Below, in pieces: positions 189 through 64,000 of a stretch of DNA of 64,000 bases. Numbering within the stretch: the first letter of the stretch is position 1; every line of letters starts with the position of its first letter. Under the pieces are notes generated by a model that worked only from the letters and a program-made list of their open reading frames with translations, did not search any database and was not told the DNA's origin. The stretch comes from Tubiluchus corallicola (taxonomy: Eukaryota > Animalia > Priapulida), in the NCBI GenBank assembly GCA_030141605.1, contig JAQGDQ010000473.1, forward strand, positions 25,053 through 89,052, written 5' to 3'. A program made the translations under genes and the position numbers.

Positions 189-1085
189 ATGGTAAATACT
201 CGTAAAAAGTCACATACAGCTACAGATAGTGACACTGGGAGTAATATGGCCTCATCTAATAGCAGCTTAAACGAGGATACAGCACAGGCACTTCTTTCCG
301 CTTTTGAAAAACGACTGACAGCAATGGAGGAACGATTGGGTAAGAGGATTTATGACAATTCAGCATCTATAGATTCAAAACTTACAGAAGTAAACAGACA
401 AATAGGCGGACTTGTGAAAAGTCAGGAATTTATTTCAAAACAATATGAAGATTTGCAAGAACAGAATAAGCAAAATGAGGAAAAAATGAGAAATCTAGAA
501 GAGGAAAACAAAATACTGAAATGTACAATAAGCAAACTAGAAAAAAAAATAACTGCATCTGAAAAATCTGTGAATGACCTTGAACAATACGAGAGGCGTG
601 ACATGCTAGAAATTACAGGTATCCCTTTCATTGAGCATGAATCTACTAACACCATTATCAAAAGGCTTTGTGATGTCATTGGTGTACAAATAGCTCCTGA
701 AGATATTGCTACTTCGCATCGGCTGCAAAAGACAAGATCTGGTAGTGCTCCAGCAATTATCGTCAAGTTTGTACGACGCGACATCCGTGACAAAGTATAT
801 GCAGCCAGGAAACGAATCAACTCTGCTCACGACCTAGGCTTTTCAACAGTAAGCAAAATTTATATAAATGAAAACCTTACAAAGCAAAATAGATCCTTGC
901 TATACCATGCACGACAGTGCAAAAAGCAACTGCGGTACAAATATGTATGGTCTCGATATGGTCGCATCTATTTAAAGAGGTCTGACTCTGATGATTCTGA
1001 AGCAGTACCAATTGACTCTCTTCAAGTTCTGCTGAGAATGGGATATAACCCAGCCATGTCATCGCAGACCAATTCTCATCTTTAA
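189..1085 (+). CDS. LINE ORF1 (coiled coil plus RRM-like/CTD nucleic-acid chaperone)
   Basis: First ATG at 189 (track uses TTG at 183). Coiled-coil region, then NDLEQYERRDMLEITGIP, IIVKFVRR, IYINENLT and YKYVW motifs typical of CR1/L2-group ORF1. Confidence 0.88.
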   Translation: MVNTRKKSHTATDSDTGSNMASSNSSLNEDTAQALLSAFEKRLTAMEERLGKRIYDNSASIDSKLTEVNRQIGGLVKSQEFISKQYEDLQEQNKQNEEKMRNLEEENKILKCTISKLEKKITASEKSVNDLEQYERRDMLEITGIPFIEHESTNTIIKRLCDVIGVQIAPEDIATSHRLQKTRSGSAPAIIVKFVRRDIRDKVYAARKRINSAHDLGFSTVSKIYINENLTKQNRSLLYHARQCKKQLRYKYVWSRYGRIYLKRSDSDDSEAVPIDSLQVLLRMGYNPAMSSQTNSHL

Positions 1086-1117
1086 CCTTAATGTTGCACT
1101 TTTCAGTTATTTAATAT

Positions 1118-4100
1118 ATGGCATCTTATCCATGTACAGTCTGCTCTAAAGTCTGTAGGTCGAATCAGAATGCTATTTATTGTGACAACTGTCAGAATTG
1201 GTGCCATCTGAAGTGCACATGCCTATCATTACAACAGTTTCAAAATTTAGCTAATTCTAGTGATACATACTTTTGCTTGCCTTGCATTAATTCGATATTG
1301 CCACTTCAGATGGCAGACGATGATGACTTTTATGATTTTGTCCATTTTAGTTATTGCAATAGTGAAATTGAACAATTACTGTCACTCAACTGTACAGCTA
1401 GTTTGTCCTCGTTTAATGATGATGATGACAAAGATCCCGACATTAATCATAATACTCTGTATGATAGCAAATACTATAAACTCACCACGCTGCAGTCATC
1501 AGCCTTTTTGCACAACAATGATAAGGATTTTAGCTTCATACATATTAATCCCAATAGCCTTCACAAACACTATCATGACATAACAGATGTGCTTCAGCAT
1601 TTTAAGAGGCCACCCGACATAATAGCAGTGTCGGAAACTCGAGTTAACGATAAAAATATTTTTTTATGTAATATACCCAATTACACTTTTTTACATACTG
1701 ATTCTAATACAAGAGCAGGGGGGGTTGGACTTTATGTATCTAATCAGCTAAATTATACTAAAATCACAAAATACTCTATCCAAAATGCTAATTCATCTCT
1801 TACTTTCCAATCCGACATGCAGTGCGAAGATCTCTGGATACAGATAGAAACTAATATACATTCTAAGCATATTATCTTTGGTGTTGTTTACCGTCATCCA
1901 AATACTAACATTAATCACTTTCATGAGGCAATGGACAACATTATGTCCGACATTAATAAAACTGGCAAGATTAGTTATGTATGTGGTGATTTCAATCTTA
2001 ACCTGCTTCACCATGAAACTAAATCATATATATCCGAATATCTCAATATGGTATTCTGCAATCAATTCACACCCATTATAACACGACCAACTAGACTTAC
2101 TCACACATCCAAAACACTTATAGATCACATCTACACAAATAACCTAAAAGACTACATCATTCCAGGCATTATACTTTACCAAATCGCTGACCACTTGCCT
2201 ATCTTTTGCATTGTCAAAAATTCAATTAGTAAACGTGCGAACTCAAAAGTAAATATCCGTGACAAGAGTAAATTCAATCAAGACGCTTTCTTAAATGACT
2301 TAACTTATAAACTAAACAACGAATCTTTTGTGACAATGTCAACAAACGAAGCATTTGAAAAATTCATGAATATAATTACAGAAACTGTTAACTACCATGC
2401 CCCGTATAAAACCTTGTCGAGAAAACAAACTAAGACATTTTACAAACCCTGGTTAACTCAAGGTATCCTAACTTCTATCAGAAAAAAAAGTCAATTATAC
2501 AAAACTCATAAATTATCCGACAGTTTATACAAAAATGAATATTATCGTACATATTGTAATAAACTAAATCGAATAAAAGAACAGTCAAAACGTAACTATT
2601 ACTCAAAAGTGCTCCAAGGAAATAAAAATAATATGCGACTAACATGGAAAACCATAAATGAAATTACAAACTGTAAAGTGAAAAACCATTTTCAACCTAA
2701 CAAGTTAACACAAAATGGTAATGAGTACAATAACCATAAGGATATAAGTGAAATACTAAACCAGTTTTTTAGTAACATAGGTAGCAATATGGCGAGAAAG
2801 ATACCATACACTGAACTAAAATTTGATTCTTTTTTGAAGAACCCAGTAAATAGCACATTTTTTATGTACCCTATATTAGAAAATGAAACATGTGTGGAAA
2901 TCAATAAGTTAAACATTAATAAATCTGCAGGTCCAGAGAATATTCCAATTTATTTTTATAAACTAGCTGTCCGCATTATTACACCATACTTAACGACACT
3001 CTATAATAAATCGATTACTGATGGCATATTTCCTAACATTTTAAAACTAGCGAAAGTAATTCCAATTTATAAGTCTGAATCACCTGAAAATCCCACCAAC
3101 TATAGACCTATATCTTTACTCTCACCGGTTGCCAAAATATTTGAAAAACTCATCTTTATCCGGCTTGACAAATTCATTTCAACAAACAAAATACTATCAG
3201 AACACCAATTTGGTTTCAGGAAAAATCATTCTACTGCCTTAGCTGTATCTGAACTAACCGATAGAATTCTTAATAATATTGACAAAAATGTATTTGTGTG
3301 TGGCATCTTCCTAGATCTGTCCAAGGCTTTTGACACTGTACAACATAATATATTACTCCAAAAAATGAAACATTATGGTATTAGAGGACTATCCCAAAAT
3401 TTCTTTGCATCTTACTTGCACAACAGACAACAGTACACTTCCATTGGAGATACTAGCTCAAATCTAACTACTATAACATGTGGAGTACCACAAGGCTCTA
3501 CTCTAGGCCCGATATTGCTTCTTTTGTACATAAATGATCTTGTAAACTGTTCAAACTTCCACACTAGAATGTTTGCAGATGACACTAATCTATTCTTAAC
3601 AGATACAAAGATAATTAATTTACAAACTTCAGTTAACAGTGAATTGCATAAGATTAATCAGTGGATGAAAGCTAACAAACTGTCTATTAACTATAAAAAG
3701 ACAAAATACATGCTGATTACGCCTGGCCGCAAAACAGACGCATATGAAAATTTCCAGATTTCAATGAATAATCAAATATTAACTAGGTCTAAAGAAATTA
3801 AATACCTCGGTATGTTCATTGATGATAACTTAACATGGTCTACACAAACAAAACACATAACCTACAAAATTAGCAAAATCAAGGGCATAATTGCGAGGAT
3901 AAGACACTACGTAAATACAGATGTACTAAAACTAATATACCATGCTTTGGTTTATTCTTATCTTCACTATGGGATTCTTTCCTGGGGCACTGCATCTTCA
4001 AATACTTTAAAACCGATACAAACTCATCAAAACATTATAGTTAAGCTGATGACATTTTCTGGTAGACGGGAACATGCAACGCCATCCTACATTAAATTGG

Positions 4101-4408
4101 GCCTCTTAAAACTGAATGATATCTACAAATCCGAGCTTGCAAAATTTGTATACAAATTTAAGAATAACTTACTACCAGAATTGTTTCTAAATTACTATAC
4201 GCCAGCATCCGATATTCACAGTTACAACACTAGGTTTTCTACTAACAGTTCTTTCTTTATCGAACGATTTAATACATCTAAGGGTCAAACGTCGTTAAAA
4301 TATCAGGGATCAGTATTATGGAACTCTCTACCTGCTCATATAACTTCTTTACCTCTGCATTCGCTAAAAAAACAGTACGCTAAGGCACTTCTTGAAGCTT
4401 ACAAATAA
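1118..4408 (+). CDS. LINE ORF2: PHD finger + AP endonuclease + reverse transcriptase
   Basis: 1096 aa. N-terminal C4HC3 PHD (CTVC...CDNCQNWCHLKC...CLPC). APE motifs AVSET, GGVGLYV, VYRHP, CGDFN, TLIDHI, DHLP. RT motifs NYRPISLL, QFGFR, FLDLSKAFDTV, GVPQGS, FADDT, KYLG. Confidence 0.97.
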   Translation: MASYPCTVCSKVCRSNQNAIYCDNCQNWCHLKCTCLSLQQFQNLANSSDTYFCLPCINSILPLQMADDDDFYDFVHFSYCNSEIEQLLSLNCTASLSSFNDDDDKDPDINHNTLYDSKYYKLTTLQSSAFLHNNDKDFSFIHINPNSLHKHYHDITDVLQHFKRPPDIIAVSETRVNDKNIFLCNIPNYTFLHTDSNTRAGGVGLYVSNQLNYTKITKYSIQNANSSLTFQSDMQCEDLWIQIETNIHSKHIIFGVVYRHPNTNINHFHEAMDNIMSDINKTGKISYVCGDFNLNLLHHETKSYISEYLNMVFCNQFTPIITRPTRLTHTSKTLIDHIYTNNLKDYIIPGIILYQIADHLPIFCIVKNSISKRANSKVNIRDKSKFNQDAFLNDLTYKLNNESFVTMSTNEAFEKFMNIITETVNYHAPYKTLSRKQTKTFYKPWLTQGILTSIRKKSQLYKTHKLSDSLYKNEYYRTYCNKLNRIKEQSKRNYYSKVLQGNKNNMRLTWKTINEITNCKVKNHFQPNKLTQNGNEYNNHKDISEILNQFFSNIGSNMARKIPYTELKFDSFLKNPVNSTFFMYPILENETCVEINKLNINKSAGPENIPIYFYKLAVRIITPYLTTLYNKSITDGIFPNILKLAKVIPIYKSESPENPTNYRPISLLSPVAKIFEKLIFIRLDKFISTNKILSEHQFGFRKNHSTALAVSELTDRILNNIDKNVFVCGIFLDLSKAFDTVQHNILLQKMKHYGIRGLSQNFFASYLHNRQQYTSIGDTSSNLTTITCGVPQGSTLGPILLLLYINDLVNCSNFHTRMFADDTNLFLTDTKIINLQTSVNSELHKINQWMKANKLSINYKKTKYMLITPGRKTDAYENFQISMNNQILTRSKEIKYLGMFIDDNLTWSTQTKHITYKISKIKGIIARIRHYVNTDVLKLIYHALVYSYLHYGILSWGTASSNTLKPIQTHQNIIVKLMTFSGRREHATPSYIKLGLLKLNDIYKSELAKFVYKFKNNLLPELFLNYYTPASDIHSYNTRFSTNSSFFIERFNTSKGQTSLKYQGSVLWNSLPAHITSLPLHSLKKQYAKALLEAYK

Positions 4409-6489: not shown

Positions 6490-9400
6490 ATGGAAGTTGA
6501 CTTTAGGTTGTATAGTGAATCTCAGGAAATTTTTAAAGAAAAGTTACAACCAAGTATTAAGGAACCACTACACTTGGTAACTCCCGGTGATGTCATTACA
6601 ACTGACCCCGGTTTCATGAGGTGAGCTTGATGTTTCTGTGATCTAGCCTTCGTTTAAGGAGCTCATCAGAGATGGCAATGTAGTCTGGACTGTTAGAATT
6701 TACACAATTGAATCTTAAATAAAAAGGGCCCTTTTTAGAGATGGACCTGATGAACGTAATTTTGGACGTGATAGACGTAATTTTGAGCGTCCTTTCACTA
6801 ACCTGATGGACATATTCCGATGGACATGATAGACGTCTGTTTGCTTTTTCGTTGGGCTTGTTGGACGTAATTTTGGACGTGATAGACGTAATTTTGAGCG
6901 TCCTTTCACTAACCTGATGAACATGATAGACGTCTGTTTACTTTTTCGATGGACTTGTTGGACGTAATTTTGGACGGAATGGACATGAGTTGAATGCCCA
7001 TTTACTAAACTGGTGGAGCTATTTGATCCCCGTGATTTACGTATGTATGTATGTATATTTGAACGCAGTAGATGTCCATTTGGTATGTGTATTTGAATGC
7101 GATGGACATAATTTCGAGCGTCCATGCACAGAATAATTTAAAGTAAAATTACTGGACCTACATAATTGTTGACGTGGTTTTCTTGACCTTTACTTTAATG
7201 CCTCCTGGATGCTAGTTTAAACATAATGGAGTTTATATATTACATGCAAATCAATTTGATTAGTTTTTGCAATGTGATTTTTATTTTAATAACATCCGTC
7301 GCGTCCTTTAAATCAGTGAATAGACGTCCAACTTACGTCCATTTCGTCCATGTTACGTTCATCGCATCCATTCATTTAGAATTTGCCCCATTTTCAGTCT
7401 TTAGTACAAAAGTCATCTGAGAGCACCAGCTTTCACCAGTTAAAGATCTTTCACCAATACTTATAAGACATAGGACTGGCATTTCTTAGAATGATCAACG
7501 ACAATAAATTGCACTTTCAGAGGTCGTGTATTTTTAATGTTTCCAATCCTGTTTATTTTTCCAGGGGACATGGAACTTACACACAAGATGAAAAACTTTA
7601 TGCATCTGTAGCTGGAACATTAGAAAGAGTGAACAAGCTGATATGTGTCCAGCCTGTGAAATCCAGGTTATTTTCACCTGTTACTTGGTTTTTTGCTTTT
7701 GTTTATTATTTCCGCAAACATTTGTGTTTTACACTGTTGATTATTGACAATTAATTGCCACAATCTTTTAATATGGTATTGTATGAAAATGTCTCAAAAT
7801 ATTATATAGGCCTAGGGTCACCAAGTGGTCATTATTGACCCCTGGTGGTCAATGGGACTATCCAAGGAGTCAATAAATGCCTGAGGATCAAAAAGGGGGT
7901 CGATAAACCCCTAGGCTGTTTGTACTTTTGGGGTCGACTTATGACTAAAACTCACCAATTTCCAACCAAATATTAAGACAAACACGTCATTCCCGTTAAT
8001 GTTGTCAGCAAATTCAATAAAACATTATGTTGATTTCTTTAGGGTTTAATTTTGCCTAAAGTTTCTCTCTCATTTTTATTATTGATGTTAGATTCGTTAT
8101 TGAAACTAGTGGTAATACAAATGTGGTGCATGAGTATGGTATAGGCATCTGAGAAGTTCATCTTGCCTGTACTGTGTACACTTACGTGGTAATAGCTCAT
8201 CTACCTAATTATTATTAATATATATTCTTTTGTACGTGCCTGGGGTTTGACGAAAAATCAAGGATTCCATGAAAGGGGTCAATCGCTATAAAATTTGGGG
8301 ACCGTGGTATATGCCTACCTTGACAATAGAATCTATGAGTCACGAAAGTTAGTGTTTTGCCACTGCATCACTTTGTTTCCCAGATTTCTTAATTACTTGC
8401 ATGTTTTTATCAATGAGTCAGCTACAGTGCAGGGATTATAACTATCTACTGTAGTTTTTGTGAGTTGTTAAACTTAACAATCCATTTGTTGGTATCATTG
8501 TTAGTGGCCTGAAAGTTTTTTTACATGTTAATAAACCATTTCATTTCATCAATTAATTTTTTTGTAAAGAAATTACAGTTTGTTTTCGGTAAACTTTTGT
8601 AGGTCACCCCTTCAACAAAAGTGCTTTGATCTGCTATGCACTTGCAACTGATAGAGATATAATTGTTGCTGGCTTGCTAATGCTGAAATATGCTAGTGTA
8701 CAGTAGTTCAAAATAATAACGACAAATAATTTACTAACAAAAAACCAAGTTTAATGTGTTTTAGTCTAGCCTAGCTGTGTGTCTACCTCAATAGTCAGCT
8801 AATAGACATTTGTGCGTTCTTATATACAGTACAAATGCACCTCAGAGAGCAGCATTTGAATTTAAATTAATTCTTAAACAATAGACACCCTATTAATAAT
8901 ATTTTCTACATCTTCGTTGTCGGAACCGGGTAAAACTATCAGACTCGTGTAATGAACAATGCGAGACACCTGGGTACCCGATGGAAACACTAAATCTTGT
9001 AAAAGCGTACGGTTGCATCATGCCAGCACTCTAACCATCGTTTCAACTGAATGCAAAATCAAGCGAACAACAAAGCGTGCCAATGAATCATGCAGGTGGC
9101 AGCACTGTCAAATTTAACATCACAATGATCATTTATTGGGAGACCAGGGTCAGATCAGAGGGCCTGGCTTATTAGCAAAGATATTTGTATACGATATGCC
9201 CTGAATGAATGATGAACATAGGCAAAACTCCATGCTTGCTAAAAGTACTTGTAGCTAACCACTCGCCAACATACAAATGCTATCATAGTCATTATCATGC
9301 ATTTGTTCAGCTTACAGTGGAACTAATGTAGTATCATGGCGAGGTAATTTCTTCCCATTTTCAGTTTACAGTTTATCTTACCACTGATTTGAGCAGCACT

Positions 9401-12400: not shown

Positions 12401-15400
12401 TGATGAATTTCTGTAAATTCTACACATAGTATACTTACACTATGACAAAGAGTTGAGCAATGATACTTAATTTCACTGGAAAATTACTTTTAACTTACTA
12501 ACCGAACCTATGATGACATTCCAGTGAAGATAGCTCTTCAACAAGCCATAGAACCTGCTAAAAACCTGCAGGAGGACAAATGTTAACATACTTAAATTTT
12601 GCACAGAAAAATTTAAACACTTCAGCATTGGTCCTTAGAAATAAATCCACTTGGGGCATTGCGGTGAGCAGGGAGTCCTGGCATAGGGAGGTGAGCAGAA
12701 TCATGTCCCTGGACGTTTGATTCAGTGAAGAAGAAGAAGAACCGAACCTAATTTAATGCAGAGATTTTATTAACAAAACAGTTTTTTGTCAAAAGTTTGA
12801 AATAACTATCAGTAAGTTTTTTGTCAAAAGTTTGAAATAACTATCAGTAATTAAGCATTTAAACAGAAAAACTTTCATTCCATTTCAGCTCGGACAAGGA
12901 ACATTAGTGAAAGTGTCTCCGTCTCTAGTAAAGCGAAGGAAAACTCACTTTCACAATTTACCGTGTGGCGCTGGCGTTATACTGGGAAATAACGGCTACG
13001 TTTGGATCAGCCCAACCGTGAACGAAGACACCGACAACACGGGAGGATTTGTACAAAATCTAAATGTATGTAACATTGCTTCCTTGAACAGCCGAGAGTT
13101 TCGTATTGCATAGAGAGGACGGCTGCTATCATTAAGCAAACTAGGCAGCTGTCTAGAGCACATGAGTCAGAAGGACGTAACATGCCTTCCTTGAACAGCC
13201 GAGAGTTTCGTATTGCATAGACAGGGCGGCTACTGCCATTAAGCTAACTAGACAGCTGTCTAGAGCACATGAGTCAGAAGGACGTAACATGGCTTCCTTG
13301 AACAGCCGAGAGTTTCGTATTGCATAGAGAGGACGGCTGCTATCATTAAGCAAACTAGGCAGCTGTCTAGAGCACATGAGTCAGAAGGACGTAACATGGC
13401 TTCCTTGAACAGCCGAGAGTTTCGTATTGCATAGAGAGGACGGCTGCTATCATTAAGCAAACTAGGCAGCTGTCTAGAGCACATGAGTCAGAAGGATGTA
13501 ACATGGCTTCCTTGAACAGCCGAGAGTTTCGTATTGCATAGACAGGGCGGCTACTGCCATTAAGCAAACTAGGCAGCTGTCTAGAGCACATGAGTCAGAA
13601 GGACGTAACATTGCTTCCTTGAACAGCCGAGAGTTTCGTATTGCATAGAGAGGACGGCTGCTATCATTAAGCAAACTAGACAGCTGTCTAGAGCACATGA
13701 GTCAGAAGGACGTAACATGGCTTCCTTGAACAGCCGAGAGTTTCGTATTGCATAGAGAGGACGGCTACTGCCATTAAGCAAACTAGGCAGCTGTCTAGAG
13801 CACATGAGTCAGAAGGACGTAACATGGCTTCCTTGAACAGCCGAGAGTTTCGTATTGCATAGAGAGGACGGCTGCTATCATTAAGCAAACTAGGCAGCTG
13901 TCTAGAGCACATGAGTCAGAAGGACGTAACATGGCTTCCTTGAACAGCCGAGAGTTTCGTATTGCATAGAGAGGACGGCTACTGCCATTAAGCAAACTAG
14001 GCAGCTGTCTAGAGCACATGAGTCAGAAGGACGTAACATGGCTTCCTTGAACAGCCGAGAGTTTCGTATTGCATAGACAGGGCGGCTACTGCCATTAAGC
14101 TAACTAGACAGCTGTCTAGAGCACATGAGTCAGAAGGGTGTAAAACTTAACTTTAAAAAATACAATATTTTATTGATATTTTATTTTATTTTATTTTTTG
14201 TTAATTTTTTTATAAACCATTACGGTTTATTTTACCAATTATTACCCATTGCGGGTAACGAGCTGGAGAAAGGAGACACTGAAAAATTGTTGACTAGTTG
14301 GGATTTGAACCAGAGACCTGAGATTAGCACTCCCATGCTCTACCAGCTAACTTATCAGCCCAGCATGATAAAACAAATTCTAAGATTTTCTCCTTGTAGC
14401 TCACAGTCCAACAGCGCCACCTGTACCCATGTCAGTAGGGGGATACTTTTGGTCACCTGTACCCATGACAGTAGGGGGATACTTTTGGTCACCTGTACCC
14501 ATGACAGTAGGGGATACTTTTGGTCACCTGTACCCATGTCAGTAGGGGATACTTTTGGCCACCTGTACCCATGACAGTAGGGGATACTTTTGGTCACCTG
14601 TACCCATGTCAGTAGGGGATACTTTTGGCCACCTGTACCCATGACAGTAGGGGATACTTTTGGTCACCTGTACCCATGTCAGTAGGGGATACTTTTGGTC
14701 ACCTGTACCCATGTCAGTAGGGGATACTTTTGGCCACCTGTACCCATGTCAGTAGGGGGATACTTTTGGTCACCTGTACCCACGACAGTAGGGGATACTT
14801 TTGGTCACCTGTACCCATGTCAGTAGGGGATACTTTTGGCCACCTGTACCCATGACGGTAGGGGGATACTTTTGGTCACCTGTATCCATGTCGGTAGGGG
14901 GATACTTTTGGTCACCTGTACCCATGACAGTAGGGGGATACTTTTGGTCACCTGTACCCATGACAGTAGGGGGATACTTTTGGCCACCTGTACCCATGAC
15001 AGTAGGGGGATACTTTTGGTCACCTGTACCCATGTCAGTAGGGGGATACTTTTGGCCACCTGTACCCATGACAGTAGGGGGATACTTTTGGCCACCTGTA
15101 TCCATGTCAGTAGGGGGATACTTTTGGCCACCTGTATCCATGTCGGTAGGGGGATACTTTTGGCCACCTGTACCCATGTCGGTAGGGGGATACTTTTAAC
15201 CACCTGTATCCATGTCGGTAGGGGGATACTTTTGGTCACCTGTATCCATGTCGGTAGGGGGATACTTTTGGTCACCTGTACACACGACAGTAGGGGGATA
15301 CTTTTGGTCACCTGTACCCACGACAGTAGGGGGATACTTTTGACCACCTGTACCCATGACAGTAGGGGGATACTTTTGGCCACCTGTACCCATGACAGTA

Positions 15401-18400
15401 GGGGGATACTTTTGGTCACCTGTACCCATGTCAGTAGGGGAATACTTTTGGCCACCTGTATCCATGTCGGTAGGGGGATACTTTTGGCCACCTGTACCCA
15501 TGTCGGTAGGGGGATACTTTTAACCACCTGTATCCATGTCGGTAGGGGGATACTTTTGGTCACCTGTATCCATGTCGGTAGGGGGATACTTTTGGTCACC
15601 TGTATCCATGTCGGTAGGGGGATACTTTTGGTCACCTGTATCCATGTCGGTAGGGGGATACTTTTGGTCACCTGTATCCATGTCGGTAGGGGGATACTTT
15701 TGGTCACCTGTACCCATGACAGTAGGGGGATACTTTTGGTCACCTGTACCCACGACAGTAGGGGGATACTTTTGGCCACCTGTACCCACGACAGTAGGGG
15801 GATACTTTTGGTCACCTGTACCCACGACAGTAGGGGGATACTTTTGACCACCTGTACCCATGACAGTAGGGGGATACTTTTGACCACCTGTACCCACGAC
15901 AGTAGGGGGTACTTTTGGCCACCTGTACCCACGACAGTAGGGGGTACTTTTGGCCACCTGTACCCACGACAGTAGGGGGTACTTTTGGCCACCTGTACCC
16001 ACGACAGTAGCGGGTACTTTTGGTATCAATATTTTTCCAAATTAGCTGGGCAGCTAACGATATCATTAATTAATAATGACTGTGACTTATGACTGCGGTT
16101 GCTTATTTATTTAGTAATCAGGTCCACCATTGTTTAACTTTGGTTGCTGAATACATACCGTGACCACTCAGCTATTCCTGTTTGACTAATTTTGACTTTT
16201 ATTATTGCAGCCAGTGAATGAGGCCGACAGAGAAGTTATAGCTAGGCTTCGCAACTGCATACTAGGCATGACGCAGCATCGAATGATGCTGTACGATACT
16301 AGCATACTGTACGCGTACGAAAGCTCTCTATCACACCCGGTAAGAAAACTGAATAGGTTATGAGTTCATTACGGAAGTAGCAGTTACACTTTGCAGGTCA
16401 TTAGGAAATCTCTCTTCTTTGTAATCTTATTGAACAATGCAGTACAATATGGTAATACAAGAGTTATATGTTCAGCTTGCAAACCAAAATCATTCATAAT
16501 TCGGCATAGTTAAAACTACATTATGATGCTTCAAAGTAGAATGCACCAAAAATTTAGTCCAATGTAACTTTTTTGTGTTTTTGTTGTGGAGATCGCTGGC
16601 GTCTATTAAAATTACATAGAACATTGCAGAATGTTCCGTTGGAATGATCGTCTTACCTTGTGGAATGTTCTGGAACAAAACTTCTGGAAGCTTCTCGGGC
16701 ACACTATATAAGGCGAAGCAGGCCACTGAGATGCACACGCTGATTCACACGGACGCCACTTACACATTTTCTTGTATACTTGTATTTTCAGATACACTTA
16801 AACGTTTTCCAGATTTTCACATTTACTGTAAACATTTTGCGTTTCTTCATACTTTTGTGTTGTAGAATTCTCGCTTAATAAACTAGTTTAATTTGATGAA
16901 GTGTTTTCTAGTTTTCTCTACGAGCCTTCTGAGAGAAACAAAACACAACAGTTTTATAAAAACAAACGCTACATTTATTGGACTTCTAGCATCAAATTAT
17001 CACGAAAATGTTAAACAATACTTATAAACTTAATTTTATAAACCCTCTACCCACCTTTCTGGCTAGACACTAGTACTGCAATCGTAAAAAAACTCGTATT
17101 TTCAAACTCCGACAATAGCTCGTAGAAGTAGTCATTTTGCTTTGGATTTTTTCTGTTGCCAAACCCAGATCTTTGCCAGGGAGAGGCATCTACTGAATTT
17201 AAGCATAACTACAATGTGCTCTTGCAAAGTCCATAGCAACCAACATTTGTACGGTTGCTAACGGTTTTGCAAAAACGCAACAGAAAACAATGGCGAACGT
17301 TAACAGCAATTTTCTCAAGATTATGTTTTTCAGTGCGTAGTGTGCACTTCAACTTCAACATGGATTTCTCACCTTAGAAATGACATAGAGAAATGAGTTT
17401 GGTATCAAAGTGATCCTCATGAAATGGATAACTAGTAAAGCCTATTGCTGACATGTACGATTTTGCTATGCAAGCATACACATTGTTACGTGAAATCTTT
17501 TATTGAATTTAGCATTCCATATTTAAACCAGTTGTGGTCAATCAGTTAATTATGTGTACTGTAAGTGACCAGCAGTGGTCAGTTAATTAATTATGTGTAC
17601 TGTAAGTGACCAGTAGTGGTCAGTCAATTAATTGCGTGTACTGTAAGTGCATAATATTTATTACCTTTGCTGTTTAATCTAAAAAAGTTATTAACTAGCC
17701 GGGCCCCCATTATTAAGTGTTGCTACTGAACTGCCTAACTATGCATAATGCAAGTTTATTGTTCTGTCATCGCGCTGCTGCTTTCCTCATACTTTAGTCT
17801 TACTTTTGTACATGTGAATTTGCTGATTTCAAAAGGCTTATGTGCCAAAATGATGGCGAAACGTACATCATTATGCAAATGTTAAAATCCACTTTTAATT
17901 TTTAAAGGAAAACCGGACAATTGATTAGACTCAATCTTATTTTAATATAGTATCCATAGTATACATTTTCTTGCCCATAAAAGTTAGCAATTATTTCTAA
18001 TATTTGAATATTGCAAAGTTAATTAGCGGCAACCGGGCACAGCTATTGCTTACATCACAAACTAACCACAGTTTGTGCAATGGTAGGCATCTTCCCTGCA
18101 CATCAAGCACGTCTGCTTAAGCGAAGATTGCTGTAAGATGTTGATGTGATGTGAGAAAAATGAGCTCAGATGAATGTCACAGATGAACACTGCAGTTCGT
18201 GATCATGCTTATCATGGTACTGCATCTATTTGTTGGCCATGAAAATGTGACAAAGAAAGCGTCATTGCCAGACTTAGTGGATTTGCAAAGCTGCACATAG
18301 CTTTGTAACTTTAACAAAATTTAACTATCCGAGGTAATTGTCATTTAATTTAATCTTTGTTTTAAAAAAAGCTATTGTAGTTTTCAATATTTTAGAGCAA

Positions 18401-20884: not shown

Positions 20885-23314
20885 TTACAATTCATCATGA
20901 TCTCTTTCCATGTCCTCCAATGTGTAATCTGTTAGAGATTCATCTATGACTTCATCTAGTTCTTCAACTTCATTTGTATAGGATTCATCTAGAAAATCTT
21001 CATCATCACGAGCTTTACGTCCGGCTTCTTCTTCTAATTCTACGAAGTCTACACGTCGAACCTTCGGCAGCCAGGTATTTTCACCCAGCGACGTCCATGC
21101 TTCAATGTTTCCTTTCATAACGTCTATTATCCAAGAACTGATCACTTGCGATTCCAGTCTGGTATCCTTGAATTTGAAAATTTTGCCAGTTGTTTTTTGA
21201 ACAAGAAACACCACTGGAATTGAAGCTTCCTTATCATAGTGGTACAGTATTTCCGATGATAATTGGTAGTTTTCCTGTACGTCTATCCAGGCAAAAAGAA
21301 TCTCTGGAAACTGTTTCGACAATGCTACTTTACCAAAGGCATCTCTGTAATTTGCTGGCCTGGAATTGGAATCGAATAAAATCAGTAGCGCCTTTTTCTG
21401 ACCTACCAACTCGGGGTAATTTTTTGAGTTCAGCTGAGGAAATATGTCTTGCTTATTTACGTTGACAAACTCGACGAGTTCTTCCACAGATTTTACATCA
21501 GATGTTCCCACAAAAGGCTGATAAACGTCGTTCTTTTTAAACAGAACATAACTTGGATAAGGCAAGTCATACGTTAAAGATAATTCTTTGCCAATCTCTG
21601 GATCAATATTCAAGCCCATTATGATTTTACCACGTAACTCATTTGAAGCCTTTTTAAATAAACTAATTTGTTCCTCGTTGCATAGGAGACCCAATAATGC
21701 AATGTGTGAATCTGATTGTTGAAATATAGGCAGATTCATAGAAACAAATTTTTCTGTATCCAATTTATTCACCAAATTTACAGGTTCGCCTTGTTTAGCG
21801 AGAAATGCTGTATGAATGATTGTACCGCTATCGAGCATTCCCTTGTATGTTTGATGATAATCTGGATAAGCATTTATAGTAACTACTGGATATTCAAAAA
21901 CCAATTCTCTTTGGCAAACGTATGTCCATTCTCCACAGTTAACTTTTGTTAATGTAAGTTCTTTCCAACGTTCTTTTTTACAAGCATCTTCTAGCTTGTT
22001 TAACAAGTATTTACTCACATGGTCCCAGGGTTGATAAAACACAGTTACTATTACTTCATTCTCACCTGCAATGAGTGGAAATGTTTTGTCAGTTTGATCA
22101 AGTATGCACTGAGCTTCTCCGGCAAGAAGGGGTTGTTTTACTCTGTAAGCTGCAGCAAACACTGCATCTGCACTTTCAGTATCATCATAAATGATGTCAC
22201 CGGCACTGGATGAAACGTCAGGAATCGATATTTGTGACAAATTTTTCTTCTGGAACCACTCTAACCTGCTGCGTACCAAATTAAGAATTACTTTTTCATT
22301 AGGTTCCCACTCAGCAAACTCAATTGACTCGTCTCGCAGCTGTATGCCCATTACAGGGTGACTTTTAACATCTGTGCCAAATCCCAACTCATTCCAGTCA
22401 TCAAAACTCATGGCACTTGCATTCACTAAAACAACTTGTATTAATCCCTTGAACGCATCAATTAACATTTTCGCTGTACCGTTTAGCTCGGTGTACCAAT
22501 CTGTATAAATTAAGTAGACCATATGTATGTTCGCATAGGCCCTGAATGGCATCATTGGTGGGACATAAATAACAGGCTGTATTTCAAGACTATCAAAAAA
22601 TATCGATAAAGAATGAAGATTTATTTCATCATAGATAGGAGTAACACGGCAGTTGCTCATTTCGCACTGAAGATACCAAACACAGGCAGTAAAGCTAACA
22701 TCACAATTTTGTAGGTCTCTCACTACCTCCAAATCTGTGGCTATTGCAAATTGATATTTTTTTCTAGAGCTATCAGCAAATGCCACTTGTAAAAAACTTT
22801 TGTGCGCAATTGTACCTAACTCAGTCGCGTATAAGAGAAACATATCTTTTCTATTCCTAACTTTGTTCTCGAGGTTCCATCGAGCAACATTGTCGTGGAG
22901 TATTGGAACTTCCCGAATCAACCGCAACTGAAGAGCATTAGCAACAACAGAGTCTACATCAAACATGGTATCCACGGAAAATTTTACATTATCCCATCCC
23001 GATTTCAAAACATACACATAATCCTGTACATCTTGCTCCTCACAATACGGCAAAACATAGTGTTCTTTGCAATTTAGTTGGCCAAACTGCATCTGGTACG
23101 CGTCTAAAATAAGTGCAGATTCCTCAAAGACATTCATTATAGATGTTATTTCAGGAGTTACATCTTGATAAAAATAAACCAAGGCTGCATTACGTCTATT
23201 TGCAAAACCATCAAATTCGCTGGCATTAAGTTGTATTAAATAAGAGGACGTACCGATTTCACAGAAAAAAAGATTAAAAATTATTGACAGAAATATGAAA
23301 CAGTAAGCTGCCAT
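20885..23314 (-). CDS. TXNDC16: Thioredoxin domain-containing protein 16 (ERp90)-like ER luminal protein, single coding exon
   Basis: Likely ATG at 23314 (MAAYCFIFLSIIFNLFF signal peptide; the ORF extends to an ATG at 23359). Several Trx-like units without CXXC (VTVFYQPWDHVS; KVNCGEWTYVC...EYPVV; MFDVDSVVANALQ), an acidic tail and C-terminal HDEL. Confidence 0.82.
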   Translation of the reverse strand: MAAYCFIFLSIIFNLFFCEIGTSSYLIQLNASEFDGFANRRNAALVYFYQDVTPEITSIMNVFEESALILDAYQMQFGQLNCKEHYVLPYCEEQDVQDYVYVLKSGWDNVKFSVDTMFDVDSVVANALQLRLIREVPILHDNVARWNLENKVRNRKDMFLLYATELGTIAHKSFLQVAFADSSRKKYQFAIATDLEVVRDLQNCDVSFTACVWYLQCEMSNCRVTPIYDEINLHSLSIFFDSLEIQPVIYVPPMMPFRAYANIHMVYLIYTDWYTELNGTAKMLIDAFKGLIQVVLVNASAMSFDDWNELGFGTDVKSHPVMGIQLRDESIEFAEWEPNEKVILNLVRSRLEWFQKKNLSQISIPDVSSSAGDIIYDDTESADAVFAAAYRVKQPLLAGEAQCILDQTDKTFPLIAGENEVIVTVFYQPWDHVSKYLLNKLEDACKKERWKELTLTKVNCGEWTYVCQRELVFEYPVVTINAYPDYHQTYKGMLDSGTIIHTAFLAKQGEPVNLVNKLDTEKFVSMNLPIFQQSDSHIALLGLLCNEEQISLFKKASNELRGKIIMGLNIDPEIGKELSLTYDLPYPSYVLFKKNDVYQPFVGTSDVKSVEELVEFVNVNKQDIFPQLNSKNYPELVGQKKALLILFDSNSRPANYRDAFGKVALSKQFPEILFAWIDVQENYQLSSEILYHYDKEASIPVVFLVQKTTGKIFKFKDTRLESQVISSWIIDVMKGNIEAWTSLGENTWLPKVRRVDFVELEEEAGRKARDDEDFLDESYTNEVEELDEVIDESLTDYTLEDMERDHDEL

Positions 23315-23985
23315 CTTTTCGGCAGAAAAACTTGGCCTTCTAATTCGTATACGGCGCATAGGTGCGACATAATCGCAAGCACTGCGGTCTCGAGATATTA
23401 CTGAATCAGAACTACTTTATTATTTACTACGTAAAAAATATAAATAAATATATGTTATATATATATGATATATAAGTTATAAATTATATGTTATAAAAGC
23501 GGAAAGTTTTTTATAGTGTGAAGTGTAAGTTAAAATTGTTGCCTTTAATGTTTTGAAACCAATAGCCAGAAAATATAATATAGTGCTGTAATAATAAAAA
23601 ATGTAATAACCCAAACATATCAAAATGGAAGAAAATGTTAAAGATAGTATTATGAAATCTGTGAACTCAAAATATCAGCTTAAAATAGTAGGTAATACAA
23701 AACCAACATTTTTGCACAATACTGAATGGAAATATAAAACCTTATGTAATCAACAGGGTAGGCAGAAAATGATCTATCTACTGGCTACTACATATAAGAT
23801 TGAACACGATAAAGTCAGATGTAATATAGAAATAAGTACAAGGATAATATATTACATTCAATGTGCAAAAGAAAAAATGTGAAAACTCATTTGACTGTGA
23901 GAAAAACAAGCGAGGATTAAAGAGCCAGCAAATGAAATTATGTAGCAATGATATACATAAACCTGAACATATGGTCAAATATTTT

Positions 23986-24511: not shown

Positions 24512-37451
<12,940 letters not shown>

Positions 37452-38685: not shown

Positions 38686-53243
<14,558 letters not shown>

Positions 53244-54700: not shown

Positions 54701-55099
54701 TGCAAAGCTGCAAGGTTCCCTGACAGCTCTCTAATCCTGCAAGATATGCCAAGAGAGCTCCAAACTTCAACACTGGTTTGGTAAAATCTGGCTGTCAGAA
54801 ATCAGGGTAAGTATTACTGAAAATTACGTGAGTATTATTAACCTATTAAATATTTTTAAATCAGCTAAATTGATAAATTAGTTTTACACGTTTTATTAAT
54901 TTTTTAATGACATGTTTAATGTGCAAACTCTAAAACTCGACATTGTGTACTATTGTGGCTTTTTGCGAAAATATTTACTTTAATAAAGATACAGAAAGTA
55001 GAAAAATTGAAATTTTTATCGTTAGAGATATCACAGTACATACCAGGTCGAACAGCAGCCGCATGACGTCATCATTTACTAGATTCTTGCTGTAGTCCA

Positions 55100-55790
55100 G
55101 AAGAATTTTCCCCGGTTTACTCGGCAGTTGTATGCTACAAAATAACAGGAAAGAATTTTTCCCGGTTTACTCGGCAGTTGTATGCTACAAAATAACAGGA
55201 AAGAAGAATTTTTCCCGGTTTACTCGGCAGTTGTATGCTACAAAATAACAGGAAAGAAGAATTTTTCCCGGTTTACTCGGCAGTTGTATGCTACAAAATA
55301 ACAGGAAAGAAGAATTTTTCCCGGTTTACTCGGCAGTTGTATGCTACAAAACAACAGGAAAGAAGAATTTTTCCCGGTTGACTCGGCAGTTGTATGCTAC
55401 AAAATAACGGGAAAGAAGAATTTTTCCAGGTTTACTCGGCAGTTGTATGCTACAAAATAACGGGAAAGAAGAATTTTTCCCGGTTTACTCGGCAGTTGTA
55501 TGCTACAAAATAACAGGAAAGAAGAATTTTTCCCGGTTTACTCGGCAGTTGTATGCTACAAAATAACAGGAAAGAAGAATTTTTCCCGGTTTACTCGGCA
55601 GTTGTATGCTACAAAATAACAGGAAAGAAGAATTTTTCCCGGTTTACTCGGCAGTTGTATGCTACAAAATAACAGGAAAGAAGAATTTTTCCTGGTTTAC
55701 TCGGCAATTGTATGCTACAAAATAACAGGAAAGAAGAATTTTTCCCGGTTTACTCGGCAGTTGTATGCTACAAAATAACAGAATAACAAA
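55100..55790. repeat. Minisatellite, 53-bp unit x ~13
   Basis: Unit aagaatttttcccggtttactcggcagttgtatgctacaaaataacaggaaag. Confidence 0.97.
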
Positions 55791-57890: not shown

Positions 57891-60249
57891 AAAAACTCAA
57901 AGATGTCTCTAGAATTATGTTCAGCAAATTACAGACATTGTGGAATAAGCACAGCATACGTAACTTATAGTTTCAACAATAACAACAACAACATTTTGCA
58001 GACAGGCAGGCGGCCATGAAAACCTTCAGCTACTGCATTTGAAGTCTGGAAGAGAGCTACATGTCAATTTGCTTGTGTAAACGAAAAAAAAACTGCTGAT
58101 TCATTGTCGACACTTCTTATGAACGAGGGAGGTTGCCTGGCCACGCGAATTTATTTATGGCCATGAAAATCATTTTGATCACGAAAGAGACCAGATTTTG
58201 GGCCAAAAGACATGAAATTTTCTCGGTTTTTACTGTTTAAAAATTCGAATAATTTTGTTAAGATTAATCCTTCTAGATAGGAAACAATGTAGCAAAACTC
58301 AATGTTATTAAAACCCAGGTGTTTAGGTTAGGAATATTTTAACTTAACAGTAGTTTTACATGTATATTATCGCTTTGAAGTAACTTCAATGTACGAAGAA
58401 GTACAGGCGATAAACCTTTCAAACATATAGCACAATATGCTCTTCATTGTTTCACGCTCCCAAGGAGAAATGCAATTTGGGAAGGAATTTATTTTTTTGC
58501 ATCTGTATTTTGCAATAATTTATTTTTTATCTAATGAATTTTAAATTTTGATGAGCTTATTAAACTTAATGTGTAAAAATTACCAAAATTTAATTTATTT
58601 CAATAATGGTATTTCATTTGAGGGGGACACTGTTCCATGGTATGCAAATTTTTAACAGTCCTGCTTTATTCAACCTTAAATAGATAATTTGTTTAATTCA
58701 GTTTTAATATTAGGATGGCTGCAGCACGAAGCACTTCAAAGAAGTTAGCCTGTTCACACTGAATTAGTTTACTGAAACACCAGTTGGCACATGGCTGTAC
58801 TTGGGTGACCAACTCAACATTTTCTCATTGAATATAAACATCAATGGAAAATACCTTGTTGGGAATGAATCTGGTAATATGTGAAGTGAAATGAAAATAA
58901 GAAAATTCACCTCCCTTTAACAATAACATCGATTTCGCAGTACTTGTTGTTATCCATCCTCAGCGGTATAAAAGTTGCTTTACGTTTGATTATACTATCT
59001 TGACATTGTATAGAAAACAAGTAAAAAAACCAAACGTTTCTAATTCTGAGAACACTGATTAGCTAACGACTCCACCCTTTCTTGTTAAAATAGACCCTTG
59101 TAATACATCAAACGACGTCTATTTGTACATAAAAATCTGTTCAATTAAGTTTCCGACACTAAATTATAGTGTTTCAATAGGAACAATGACTGTGTGGTAT
59201 GATTTCGACTACTAATGGATTCTGTATGTGGCTGAAAAAGACAAATGGAAAGAGGACTAAAGAGAGAAGCAGATGGAAAGAGGACAGAGCATCCATGTGG
59301 GATGAGTAATGTATGGCAGGCAAGCTGGCATGTGTGTAGGCATGCATACATGCTGCCAGGCACTAATCAATACTTCGCATTCTGAACTAGTTTATAATTA
59401 AGTGAACTAATTACAGCTGTTGTGTATCACGTTTAGCCATTTAGTGTGCTTTTTATTTATTTTTCTAGAGTTCTGTGCAGATTTTTTTCTAAAAAAAGGC
59501 TGCAGAAAAGGGACCTCTTGTGCCTTTTTGCACGTGTAGCCACAGGTGTGTTTGTACATTGTTTAAGTATTCAGGTGAGTCATCTGCATGGCATCATGAC
59601 TCATATGAGAGACTGCATCAAGGATGAATTTTTTGGTGCAAGAGCATCAAGAAGCATGAGGTATTTATCTGATTCTAAAAAAGAAAAAATGCTGTCATTG
59701 TTAATGCTGTCATTGTATTCCTGGTTCATTGCGTATTTGGAAAAAGGGTACGATTAAGAAAATGCGCCACTCAAAAACTTATTTAACTTAACAACGTGAG
59801 TGATGTAAAGTGTCAACACTTGTTGAATGCTGCACATTTTCTTGAAGATGAAATGTATGACAAAGTAGCGAACCTTGGAAAGTCCTCACCAGCGATTTGA
59901 TCACTGACAAACCATTAGATGAGAAATGGACAATGTTTTTTTCTGGGTGTAAAGCACCAAATTTCTTCTGCATAGTTGCAAGGATACTAGCCATTGCCGT
60001 GAGCAGTGCATTTGTAGATAGAACAATCTCACTAATTAATAACCAATCAGCATAAAATAACCAAGAGGTCACAACTGCAAGCAATTATTGAAAGAGTTAA
60101 AATTGCAAGCTTGTGTGTAAAAAATGAACTTCTTAGAGCAATAGAATCCTTGCATGGAAAAATATGTTTGGGAGAATCCTTGACTTGTGTGGTCCTGCAG
60201 CAACTTGAGTTAAGTGTTGTTATAAAAGGCACAGGAAGATGTGATGATG

Positions 60250-60915
60250 CACAGACAATGGTAGTTGCACTGACATTATATTTAAATAGTCGATGTGCAT
60301 ATTCAGAACTTCATAAATATTTAGCTCTGCCTCACCCAAAAATCTTAACCAACAATACTACTAGACTCTCAGATGTTGGGTCAAAGGTAGAAGTGGAGAG
60401 AGTTCTCCTCTATTTTTTGGGACATCAGGTAAAAACTCAAAAAAACTTAACTTTTTGCTTGAAAGATATTTCAGTAAATGTATTTTTTTGGCCCACACAG
60501 TATCTAATATTAGAAACCACTGACCAAGATAAAATTGATACATTTATATGTTCATCCTAATACTGTACGTGGAACTATTTTTTTTACAACTGTAAAACAC
60601 ATATTAAAGATTCCATAAAGTCAATAACTTTATTTTAGTGCTGCGATTTTCATTTTTCATTCAAAATGCTGTTTGCTGTTTGATGAAGTCTATTTGAAGA
60701 CTAACCTTCGTTTCCGCGGAAGTCACGTTGTTGGACATGCAGCTGATAATACAGAGGAATTAGCAAAAACCGTTGATGGCTAGAAAGTCGAATGCTCTGC
60801 GCTTTGTTTCACTATTCAAAGTAAATGCACTTGAATTGTATACAAATTTACTTCAAGTTTTGAAAATAATTAAAAGTGTGGGAGGACATTGTGTAGCTAT
60901 AATGTCTGATAAATC
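60250..60915 (+). pseudogene. Decayed P-element/THAP9-family transposase fragments
   Basis: VALTLYLNSRCAYSELHKYLALPHP (60260-60340), CCLLFDEVYLK...VVGHAADNTEELAKTV (60667-60775) and VLKIIKSVGGHCVAIMSD, in canonical P-transposase order but interrupted. Confidence 0.8.
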
Positions 60916-62959
60916 AGTCTTGTGGTGGTCTGGCTTTCCCATAGCCATCCCTGTAGTGTCATTTTTTGTAAGTTTTACCCTATTTAAGTTTGGAACTGCC
61001 ACACGCCACACAACACATCAATAAGTGAAACGGAACAATTAATGATATTAGTTTTAATTATGTATGTAAATAATTTTGAGTGCAGATGACCATAATCTGC
61101 ATCGTGTTCAAGCCCAACCGGTTAGCAGAAAAAGTTGTTTTTGTGCTAAGAGATATCTCAACCCAAATGGATTTTGGAATTGCAACAGTTTTGTTTAGCC
61201 AGTCACGTATCTTTTTTCAGGATCTGAATTCTGATTGAAGACTACGAGTGGCTTCCTTTCAAATCAGAAATACTGTCAAAATACCTGTGCTGAATGACCT
61301 GTGATATGACTTTATTCGTCATTCTAACGTCTTGACCTTGTTCTGCACAGACGTGCATATTTGTCGTGGGGTGCTGGCCTGGCAGACATCTTGAAATTGA
61401 TGAGAAGTAATATTTTTGCAGAAGTTTCGTACAGACGAACCAAAGTAGTTTTACCATAAACTCATCACCATAAACATATACACTGTGTTTGGGACAAGTT
61501 GGAGTCCACTAAATTCAAATTGCGGATGGTTACTGAAAGGCTCCTACTTACGAGCATCGAGTTGTCCTGTAATCAGCTCGTCAACGTACGTGAATAGGTT
61601 TTATGGTTGAGAATGGCAGAACAAATCATTCTACATCAAAGGTTAAATGGTCCCAGGATTTGGGAGGTCAAAGTCTAGCCATAGTGCAGACCGGAGTTAG
61701 CTAGAGTGGAGAAATTCTACCCACAGCAGAGACAGTGGTTAATCAAGTGGAGCCAAAATAGAAATCTGATTTTGAAAATATTCTATTTTATTTTATGATG
61801 AAATGACTTTGGAAAATTGGCTGTTATTTAAGCACGACCCCTTATACTGATTTGCTCTACATATATTATCAAGAAAAGGTTTGTTTTTTCTAATATGACG
61901 TTGATATCTGCTTATCCTGGGTTAGCTGCGGCATGTGGTTGATAGAACATGTACATAATCATGCAAACCAAAATTATGATCAAAATAAACACAGGACCAA
62001 AACAAAATTGTCAATGCCATGCTTTTATTAGTGTCACCTAGATAACAATGGGAAGAGTTATCCCAGCACTGAAATCTTATCAAGGAATTCCGGTGTAAAG
62101 GAAGAGGTCGACATTCAAAATCCAAAGGAGCAAGAAAGAGAGGTCACCAAGAACAGGAGACAAAGAAAAGCACAATCCCTCAACAAGCCCAATCAACAAT
62201 GAAAGAAGCCCAACTAGTGAATCTCTTGGAGGAGAGGAGCTTGAGAAGATATGCATAAGTCTGCCATGTGTCAATTAGAAGTTCATCTAACTCTACAAGA
62301 GAAAATGAGAAATCCAAAAAGTCCCACGATCCTGTAAAATGAGTGAGCGATTGAATGTTCCCATTATTCCTTAATAAATCCAATACTCTTTTCCAGTAAT
62401 CATCCACTACTCCAATTTTTGCAATAGGCAAACACTTCCGTGGAACAATTGCTGGTATTTTTCAACAGTTGTGTAATCCAATTTAATAGTAAACATAAAC
62501 TTACAATGTAAAATTTGCAATGAAATTGTGAATTATATGAGAGTGCAGAATAGTAGAAACTATCAGCAAGCTTAGAAAAGTTTGTAGAAAAAGCATCTTT
62601 TGTAAAGTAAGTTTGTGCTGCCAGGTTAGAGAAGCATAAGTCAGATGGCCTAACTGCAAACTGACTAAATAAAAGTGTCAGAGTGCAGATAGCCTAGACT
62701 CATGGACATTCTGACAAAGGTTACCAAAAGATGTAATTCATTATTGAAGTTGTACATCGTAGTACTACATAAGTACTAGTATTTTGTTTAGTTTCTCTAC
62801 ATGCTGAGCTGCAAACAAATGTGGAAATGACAGAAAAATGGAGGTGGCTACATATCCAAATGTAAGCAAATTTTGCACGAATAGCAATGCGAAACTCAGC
62901 ACTTTGGAAAGAAGAACTTCTCATACTAACTTTGCTTACGTTGATTCTAAAGAAGAACT

Positions 62960-63200
62960 TTTTGAAGAATGGCAAGAACGACTGAATCTAGGAAAGGTAA
63001 TACAGAGGTTTACAGTGGTTACTTATGCTTTTATGTAAAAGTGCCCCCAGCTGCAACAATACATTTATTAGCTCCTACTGGTGTGACTGAGTTTAACATT
63101 GGTGGAGATACGATATATTCTAGTTTGCAGATTTCTAAAGGAAATATAAATGCACTTAGTCCTGATGCATTAAATACGTTACTTGCTCAAAATGGCTGCC
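62960..63200 (+). pseudogene. PIF1/Helitron-type helicase fragment
   Basis: LLAPTGVTEFNIGGDTIYSSLQI resembles the PIF1-family APTGxAAxNIxGxTIHS motif; no intact Walker A. Confidence 0.7.
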
Positions 63201-63282
63201 ATTATTGGTTGGAAATAATATTCACAAAAACGTGTTAGCTTTCTACGTATAAACAGAGGTAGATATGTGTAGAAAACTAATC

Positions 63283-63336
63283 ACACAAAGACGCTCATTA
63301 ACATTTTGAAACAAAGGAATAGGATATTGATAAGTC
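63283..63336 (+). other. Phenuivirus segment terminus ACACAAAGAC plus 54-nt viral 5' UTR
   Basis: acacaaagac at 63283-63292, 54 nt upstream of the N ATG. ACACAAAG is the conserved Phenuiviridae terminal sequence. Confidence 0.8.
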
Positions 63337-64000
63337 ATGTCCCAGCAGCAGAAGAAAACAGCCAGCGAGCAAGACGTTCAGAGATTCATCCTGGCATCCT
63401 TAGAAGACGTTAATATAGAAGATCTGAAGAAGGATGCCAAAGACATGATGGAGTTAGTAAAATTCCAGGGCTTTGATCCTGTGGAGACTGCACGTCAAGT
63501 CTTGGAATATAGTGACTGGGGTACTGGTGATGCCCCAATGTCAGATGCCTTGAAGGATGTATCCAAGATGATAGCCCTATTCCAAGCGAGAGGATCTAAA
63601 ATTGTCAATAAGTCTGGACAAAACTTTAGAATGAGTGCAGATGGGGTTAGTAGAGTTACTAACCTTATATCAAAATATCACATCGTGGCATCAGGAGGAG
63701 GACAACATGCAAAAGTCCTAACCCTACCAAGGATAGCTTTAGCTTTCTCTTACATCACATGTCAAAACTCTTACACTCTTCTTCCCGAGTCTGATACTCT
63801 CAGGCAACTCACTTGCACCGCACCAGTCAAACAGACAGCCTTTGCCAGTTTGATACCCAATGATATTGAGAATGAAGCAGATTCCACTAGGAGCATGGTG
63901 ACCACATTAATGTATGCCCATGCATATTGCATGTATGAATTAGGGAAGATCATTGGGGGAAATAAGAAACTCAGCCAAAGGCAAAGAGTGGATGAGGTGA
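63337..64000 (+). CDS. Endogenous viral element: Phenuiviridae-like nucleocapsid (N) protein, 3'-partial
   Basis: Hand-translated 221 stop-free codons: MSQQQKKTASEQDVQRFILASLEDVNIEDLKKDAKDMMELVKFQGFDPVETARQVLEY...KDVSKMIALFQARGSK...MSADGVSRVTNLISKYHI...LTLPRIALAFSYITCQ...AFASLIP...LMYAHAYCMYELGKII. Motifs are collinear with phlebovirus N (YQGFD, KDAKKMI..RGNK, MSKEG..LINKY, LTLSRV..TCQ, FAGM, DAH). Confidence 0.9.
   Translation, partial: MSQQQKKTASEQDVQRFILASLEDVNIEDLKKDAKDMMELVKFQGFDPVETARQVLEYSDWGTGDAPMSDALKDVSKMIALFQARGSKIVNKSGQNFRMSADGVSRVTNLISKYHIVASGGGQHAKVLTLPRIALAFSYITCQNSYTLLPESDTLRQLTCTAPVKQTAFASLIPNDIENEADSTRSMVTTLMYAHAYCMYELGKIIGGNKKLSQRQRVDEV

Follow-up and report, generated by a model that had tools for sequence, protein, structure and literature searches.

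The right-hand end of the window, as we call the whole stretch of 64,000 nucleotides of DNA that was analysed, carries a reading frame resembling the nucleocapsid (N) gene of a phenuivirus, which raises the question of whether this frame is truly part of the host genome and, if so, how it came to be there. An endogenous phenuivirus N belongs to a class that is already known, and the unusual part of this locus is the junction. The entry route of non-polyadenylated RNA-virus transcripts into animal germ lines is usually unknowable because the junctions have decayed; at this locus the first nucleotide of the virus can still be read, along with a spacer the size of a leader, a target in duplicate and an allele that lacks the insert, and this opens both the enzyme and the kind of template, mRNA or antigenome, to testing. 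For comparison with the window we used contigs of X1, X2 and X3, which are runs of one sample (S1), of DNA type by our guess and possibly the window's own source, and of X4, a run of a second sample (S2) that comes from another study and has no organism or library label.

The nucleocapsid frame and its relatives

The N frame runs on the forward strand from the ATG at 63337 to the window edge (63337..64000), and its reading bore out the 221 uninterrupted codons counted in an earlier note on this DNA; a stop-free run of this length has a chance of about 4e-8 at the composition of the flank. The same note had called the gene intact, which holds in that no stop occurs up to the window edge, but the stop codon itself lies outside the letters seen. 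Past the edge, the contigs of X1 and X2 run for 242 nt more, with room for 81 codons. The relatives have a median of 73 residues beyond the column of residue 206, from which about 58 more residues would be needed (with a wide range), and a complete N gene past the window edge is plausible. In X4 the N contig reaches 226 nt beyond the edge, which is 16 nt less than in X1 and X2. The frame had also been described as less AT-rich than its flanks; its GC content is indeed 43.4%, the 2 kb upstream having 36.7%, yet the contrast is modest, as 8.8% of equal-sized windows are as high. CpG is strongly depleted in the N ORF, with an observed/expected ratio of 0.26 compared to 0.67 in the whole window.

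The assignment to phenuivirus-type N, which the earlier note had drawn from six motif blocks, was confirmed by both profile and fold. All six blocks are found in the translation in the order given there, and five of them align to the N of Toscana virus. Residues 28-216 match Pfam PF05733 (Tenui_N) with an E of 1.8e-14 and 54.3 bits, the curated cut-off being 25, and all 12 matches in a PDB sequence search are named nucleoprotein or nucleocapsid (E 9e-8). Among 1.84 billion representatives, 51 matched N at E <=0.001, the top one with 31% identity (E 2e-11), and the closest relatives reach only about 31-36% identity. When the query was aligned with 48 of these 51 matches, each of the 49 rows matched the Tenui_N profile, and the query keeps the four invariant residues of this 49-member alignment, G45, G86 and R132 being among the invariants. 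An AF2 model built with the alignment of family members predicts an all-helical N fold with a pLDDT of 88.7 (the single-sequence fold was unusable, with a pLDDT of 37.9). In a Foldseek search of this model against the PDB, the 20 rows listed are all phenuivirus N, including those of SFTSV, Toscana virus and RVFV, with TM values of 0.57-0.66, and matches among predicted structures comprise phenui-like N of ticks, insects, crustaceans, fungi and plants.

The source virus appears to be an unnamed phenuivirus with no close relative in the collections searched, which agrees with the earlier suggestion of an undescribed virus. A quick maximum-likelihood tree with 57 rows, P0025 being left out, places the query on a long branch (1.28) without a supported sister, and the copy flags a deep, unplaced phenuivirus lineage. 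A word-based protein search passed none of 218 candidates, a profile search gave seven distant unnamed matches, and a search of the Atlas gave no usable match. Close relatives of N were found neither in viral contigs (0 of 6 stretches) nor in metagenome contigs (0 of 82), P0005 was likewise not found in viral contigs (0 of 4), and the 64-kb window yielded no further N-like piece. Names were available for 20 of the 51 matches and include a Daphnia magna genomic N, a Pycnogonum protein, a thrips-associated virus and Precarious Point virus. Two Tenui_N-like proteins, P0010 (CAM1292729.1, Pycnogonum litorale) and P0054 (KAK4006171.1, Daphnia magna), lie on host contigs of 3.9 Mb and 13.7 Mb and are likely to be further endogenous N copies; one of them is annotated merely as uncharacterised. 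Another match, P0007 (UHK03330.1), is called a phasmavirus nucleocapsid by its source, yet it matches Tenui_N and its name may be off.

The left junction and the empty site

The frame is preceded by a viral 5' UTR of 54 nt (63283..63336, forward strand) that contains no upstream ATG and starts with the segment-end motif ACACAAAGAC (63283-63292), as judged from the motif itself, from related segments and from the points at which the flanks break. The motif was set in advance and then tested on related segments: the three complete ones all open with the same 10 letters and have the N ATG 34-47 nt later, whereas the motif is absent from a fourth control, metagenome contig L004 (1026 nt). ACACAAAGAC has its sole match in the window here, which is unremarkable by itself with 0.32 matches expected in 64 kb, but the number expected within 150 nt of the N ATG and in its orientation is only 3.6e-4. 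The conserved Phenuiviridae 5' end of ACACAAAG type at nucleotide 1 is present at 63283-63292, and tenuivirus termini have been reported as ACACAAAGUC, partly common to other phenuivirids (PMC8148189, PMC8238005). Moreover, three different left flanks all diverge at 63283, the viral nucleotide 1.

The host sequence next to the virus could be delimited by a contig of the second sample. X4 record 24 covers 62910-63270 with 0 differences and continues, unbranched, straight into the onward sequence that leaves a 64-bp duplicate in X1, X2 and X3, and it is the empty site in S2. The 64 bp of host sequence concerned (left copy at 63207..63270) are duplicated in S1 and likely represent a target-site duplication, as they form a contig of their own at double depth and occur once in the empty-site contig. 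Their depth is 2.08x that of the flank in X1 and 1.96x in X2, and two paths lead into them and two lead out. The depths in X1 are 186 on the unique flank and 387 on the duplicate; the entries have 186 (from the window flank) and 177 (from an unlike sequence), and the exits 218 toward the virus and 182 toward another unlike sequence, so that entries and exits lie at 0.95-1.17 of the flank. The same entries and exits recur in X2, and X3 has the same exit. The duplicate is deduced from the contig graph and the empty site, its right copy being unseen in place. In all three S1 runs, duplication layouts fitted the depth ratios better than a filled/empty heterozygote (rms log2 deviation of 0.11-0.28 vs 0.45-0.51), bearing in mind that contig depth does not equal copy number, and the simplest reading of the layout is flank, duplicate, insert, duplicate, flank.

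Given that the empty site diverges after 63270 and that the virus starts at 63283, exactly 12 nt (63271..63282, forward strand) belong to neither target nor virus. We infer that this spacer is likely a capped host leader stolen by the viral polymerase. To prime their mRNAs, bunyaviruses use pieces of host 5' ends cleaved 10-20 nt from the cap (PMC8916216), and phenuivirus leaders of 12-14 nt have been reported (PMC11162785). The insert begins 12 nt before viral nucleotide 1, as a LINE-type retro-copy from a transcript's 5' end would. The spacer occurs a single time in the window, within which its source gene was not found, and at a single junction 12 nt are indistinguishable from filler or untemplated DNA.

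The left host-virus junction is bridged by DNA contigs of two runs, X2 record 13 (42 letters on the left and 718 on the right) and X3 record 20 (42 and 187), which substantiates the genomic integration proposed previously; a bridging contig of X1 was not counted because it has merely 30 letters on the right. Since none of the contigs listed spans unique flank, duplicate and virus together, the path through all three rests on the window's assembly. In one sample, S1, the virus is covalently joined to host DNA at 1.5-2x flank depth; such full-depth N argues against somatic mosaicism, and the site is empty in S2. We conclude that the window almost certainly holds a true integrated copy of a phenuivirus N.

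The insertion target (63035..63270, forward strand) appears to be a decayed, Helitron-like repeat with a PIF1-helicase-like motif, a weak assignment based on a 23-residue match to PDB 8bnv (E 0.056), and neither Pfam nor NCBIfam gave a match for it; we presume that it belongs to a Helitron-like family. Contigs of X1 and X2 match 63195-63229 with 3 differences, which points to a diverged copy of the repeat elsewhere. A helicase-like frame reaching 63282 was dropped, as the empty site continues differently after 63270. A stretch of 20 nt in the duplicated target (63217-63236) matches ORF1 of a LINE on the opposite strand (130-149) at 95% (E 0.037), probably by chance.

Further copies and the route of entry

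The contigs indicate that this N is present more than once. The N contig of X1, 960 nt in length, has its first letter exactly at 63283 and lies at 2.0x flank depth, which compares with 1.5x in X2 and 1.9x and 1.2x in X3. A second left flank in S1 joins at 63283, though among the records listed it occurs in X1 only (one of three runs), at a depth of 120 or 0.64x, and X4 has a third left flank of 29 letters that again ends at 63283. The two other left flanks are short (29 and 36 letters). In X4, N has depths of 234 and 159 as opposed to about 5-12 on the unique flank (4-20 over the flanks generally), an excess of roughly 13-47x that may reflect an array, transcription or infection. Some X4 contigs end in letters that we take to be adapter-like, and therefore the inserts are presumably short. 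X5, which carries the same species label and belongs to another study, gave nine short repeat matches, none of them on N or on the long unique flank, and was as uninformative as X6 with no matches.

Between X4 and the window, 4 of 718 positions are different, two of them synonymous and two changing an amino acid, so that the identity is 99.4%; X1 and X2 differ from the window at one of these four variable positions. The earlier note had left the choice between a recent insertion and co-option by the host. The former is borne out by the empty site, the perfect 64-bp duplicate and the 99.4-99.9% identity between copies. The latter, as drawn from intactness, found no support: at less than 1% divergence an open frame is expected without selection, with a neutral probability of remaining open of 0.69 at 0.5% and 0.48 at 1% divergence under an assumed indel rate. 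Because an unselected frame often stays open at 0.5-1% divergence, the intactness of N says nothing on its function. Most likely the copy has no role yet and is a segregating passenger, and it may possibly serve as a template for RNA silencing later on.

Taken as a whole, the locus is probably a young retro-copy that is polymorphic, made from a viral N mRNA of full length together with its leader and accompanied by a target duplication. In such a scenario, the phenuivirus polymerase would steal a capped host leader to prime N mRNA in a germ cell, and a host reverse transcriptase would copy this capped mRNA through to its 5' end at a staggered nick inside the decayed helicase-like repeat, that is, by target-primed reverse transcription, with the staggered nicks giving rise to the 64-bp duplication. 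The frame would be open since the copy is young rather than since it is selected. Since every viral mRNA bears a leader of its own, independent captures would break at the same viral base, and captures starting from viral nucleotide 1 would account for the three junctions. A duplication of 64 bp is long for a target site, and L1 target duplications of up to several hundred nt have been reported (PMC1291365). Priming is harder to account for, because bunyavirus mRNAs usually lack poly(A) (PMC9836281) and no tail is seen at the far side of the duplicate: the 30 letters entering it from there, which by deduction form the end of the insert, contain neither poly(A) nor a viral end motif. It can be guessed that the 3' end was fused to the 3' end of a host element that would supply the priming.

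A possible source of reverse transcriptase lies in the window itself, although nothing ties it to the insert. The neighbouring transposable element fragments had been described as frameshifted, and the remnants are indeed broken, but an uninterrupted LINE is present at 90-4408. This element, on the forward strand, has an ORF1 of 331 codons with Baculo_FP domains and an ORF2 of 1097 codons with PHD, endonuclease and reverse transcriptase domains.

The several junctions are best read as recurrent captures from a virus that possibly remains in circulation. More tentatively, and with the odds rather against it, endogenisation could be ongoing, with a still-infecting lineage, lacking close known relatives, whose whole capped N mRNAs are recurrently retro-copied into the germ line, each with a different cap-snatched leader at its 5' junction, and with the S2 signal stemming from live virus or from an amplified array. 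Should recurrent capture be true, the genome would be a readable record of the host transcripts decapped by the virus in germ cells.

Among the alternatives, a recent integration from antigenomic, uncapped viral RNA or from free viral cDNA patched into a DNA break seems unlikely. The 12 nt would then be filler, and the 64-bp duplicate would be a product of repair or would stem from a host element joined to the unseen 3' end. An antigenome likewise starts at the end motif, the 30 letters entering the duplicate from its far side show no poly(A), and the contig on that side starts just 35 letters before the duplicate, as if from a multi-copy node; two published accounts also report an absence of target duplications at insect and isopod copies of RNA viruses (PMC4231630, PMC2987831). 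The length of the spacer, however, falls within the narrow range reported for leaders (PMC11162785), and the RNA-virus copies of a wide survey are described as spanning single transcripts, which points to mRNA templates (PMC2987831).

It is quite improbable that the locus is one of a family of antiviral N genes, domesticated or under selection, which the host copied and amplified as a dominant-negative protein or small-RNA source, in the manner of odin in Chaoborus or of the CFAV element in Aedes, precedents for which have been reported (PMC6620529, PMC7522710). The open frame with its invariant residues and confident fold would suit such a family, as would the roughly 1.5-2 copies in S1 and the excess depth in X4. 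Nevertheless, openness is expected neutrally and four differences are too few for dN/dS, a host duplication should bring its flanks along whereas the flanks break at viral nucleotide 1 three times, and the empty site in S2 (X4, where the species label is absent) indicates that the copy at this locus is not fixed. That the assembly is at fault, through contamination by virus or through a misjoin at the 64-bp repeat, N then truly lying at another locus, is very improbable: no listed contig spans the whole path and the filled state is seen in one sample only, but an RNA virus is unexpected in DNA-type runs at 1.5-2x nuclear depth, contigs of two runs connect host and virus with more than 31 letters on each side, and even with a misjoin N would stay joined to host DNA.

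Known systems and the remainder of the window

With the N of Phenuiviridae (SFTSV, Toscana, Rift Valley fever virus, uukuvirus) this copy has in common the Tenui_N match, the fold, G45, G86 and R132, the 10-letter segment start and a short 5' UTR, but it is at best 31-36% identical, sits on a long lone branch and exists as DNA in a host chromosome. Phlebovirus/uukuvirus-like N copies have been reported in ticks (PMC2987831, PMC10675110), and phlebovirus-like copies in an isopod and in water fleas (PMC4231630). These tick and crustacean elements, including that of Daphnia magna (KAK4006171.1), are likewise described as host-integrated phenuivirus N spanning one transcript; unlike here, the portions of those accounts that bear on them mention neither a kept segment end nor a leader-sized spacer nor an empty allele. 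Odin of Chaoborus americanus is a captured phasmavirus N, reported as tandem and in several copies beside its cognate virus (PMC6620529), and thus resembles this N as a bunyaviral N in several copies in a host genome. It is however described as limited to the coding sequence, as expressed and fixed, and as having an age of millions of years, whereas the present copy keeps the 5' UTR and segment end, is polymorphic and is near-identical between samples.

The borna- and filovirus mRNA copies that LINEs have made in mammals provide a further parallel, as they are reported to comprise the whole gene from the transcript start with a target duplication (PMC2987831). Those copies have poly(A) tails, while bunyavirus mRNA is usually without one (PMC2987831, PMC9836281), and a host leader at the junction is possible only for viruses that snatch caps. 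In the literature, as far as the published text we drew on extends, no endogenous copy was found described with both a kept segment end and a cap-snatched leader, and supplementary figures (e.g., Figure S1 of PMC2987831) may bear on this point.

Carriers and non-carriers of a near-identical virus sequence would constitute a natural experiment on whether a new viral copy protects its host, a situation that has been called exceedingly rare (PMC6620529). In Aedes, an element has been reported to limit its cognate virus via piRNAs (PMC7522710).

Animal nuclear DNA makes up the remainder of the window, where housekeeping genes split by introns occur together with minisatellites and the remains of transposons. 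Host exons encode an RRP4-like protein (7467-7754) and a member of the ATP synthase alpha/beta family (31215-31601), and phosphoglucose isomerase exons occur on the reverse strand at 40763-53000, the N copy lying about 10 kb beyond the last of these exons found. In a comparison with one phosphoglucose isomerase exon, entries of animal type came first. A TXNDC16-like thioredoxin-domain protein is encoded on the reverse strand in one frame of 843 codons (20885-23416), apparently intronless among intron-rich neighbours; in a protein search with it, none of 7995 candidates passed at E 1e-20. A decayed P-element/THAP-like transposase is suggested at 59700-60850 (forward strand) by weak Pfam matches in two frames (E 0.006-0.07). 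A purine-rich, T-poor stretch at 62040-62340 has no family match, and no support was found for a second viral fragment there; X4 covers 61866-62350 with 7 differences at a depth of 20, above its neighbours. Matches to hemocyanin (summed weak domains, best single E 0.86), to OXA beta-lactamase (E 0.05-0.09) and to two Rfam families (far under threshold) were put down to chance. Homogeneous minisatellites with periods of 107, 36, 26, 3, 33, 20 and 53 are located at 13070-16024, 36589-37040, 44749-46347, 47960-49038 and 55099-55781, and such an abundance of minisatellites is typical of a repeat-rich animal genome.
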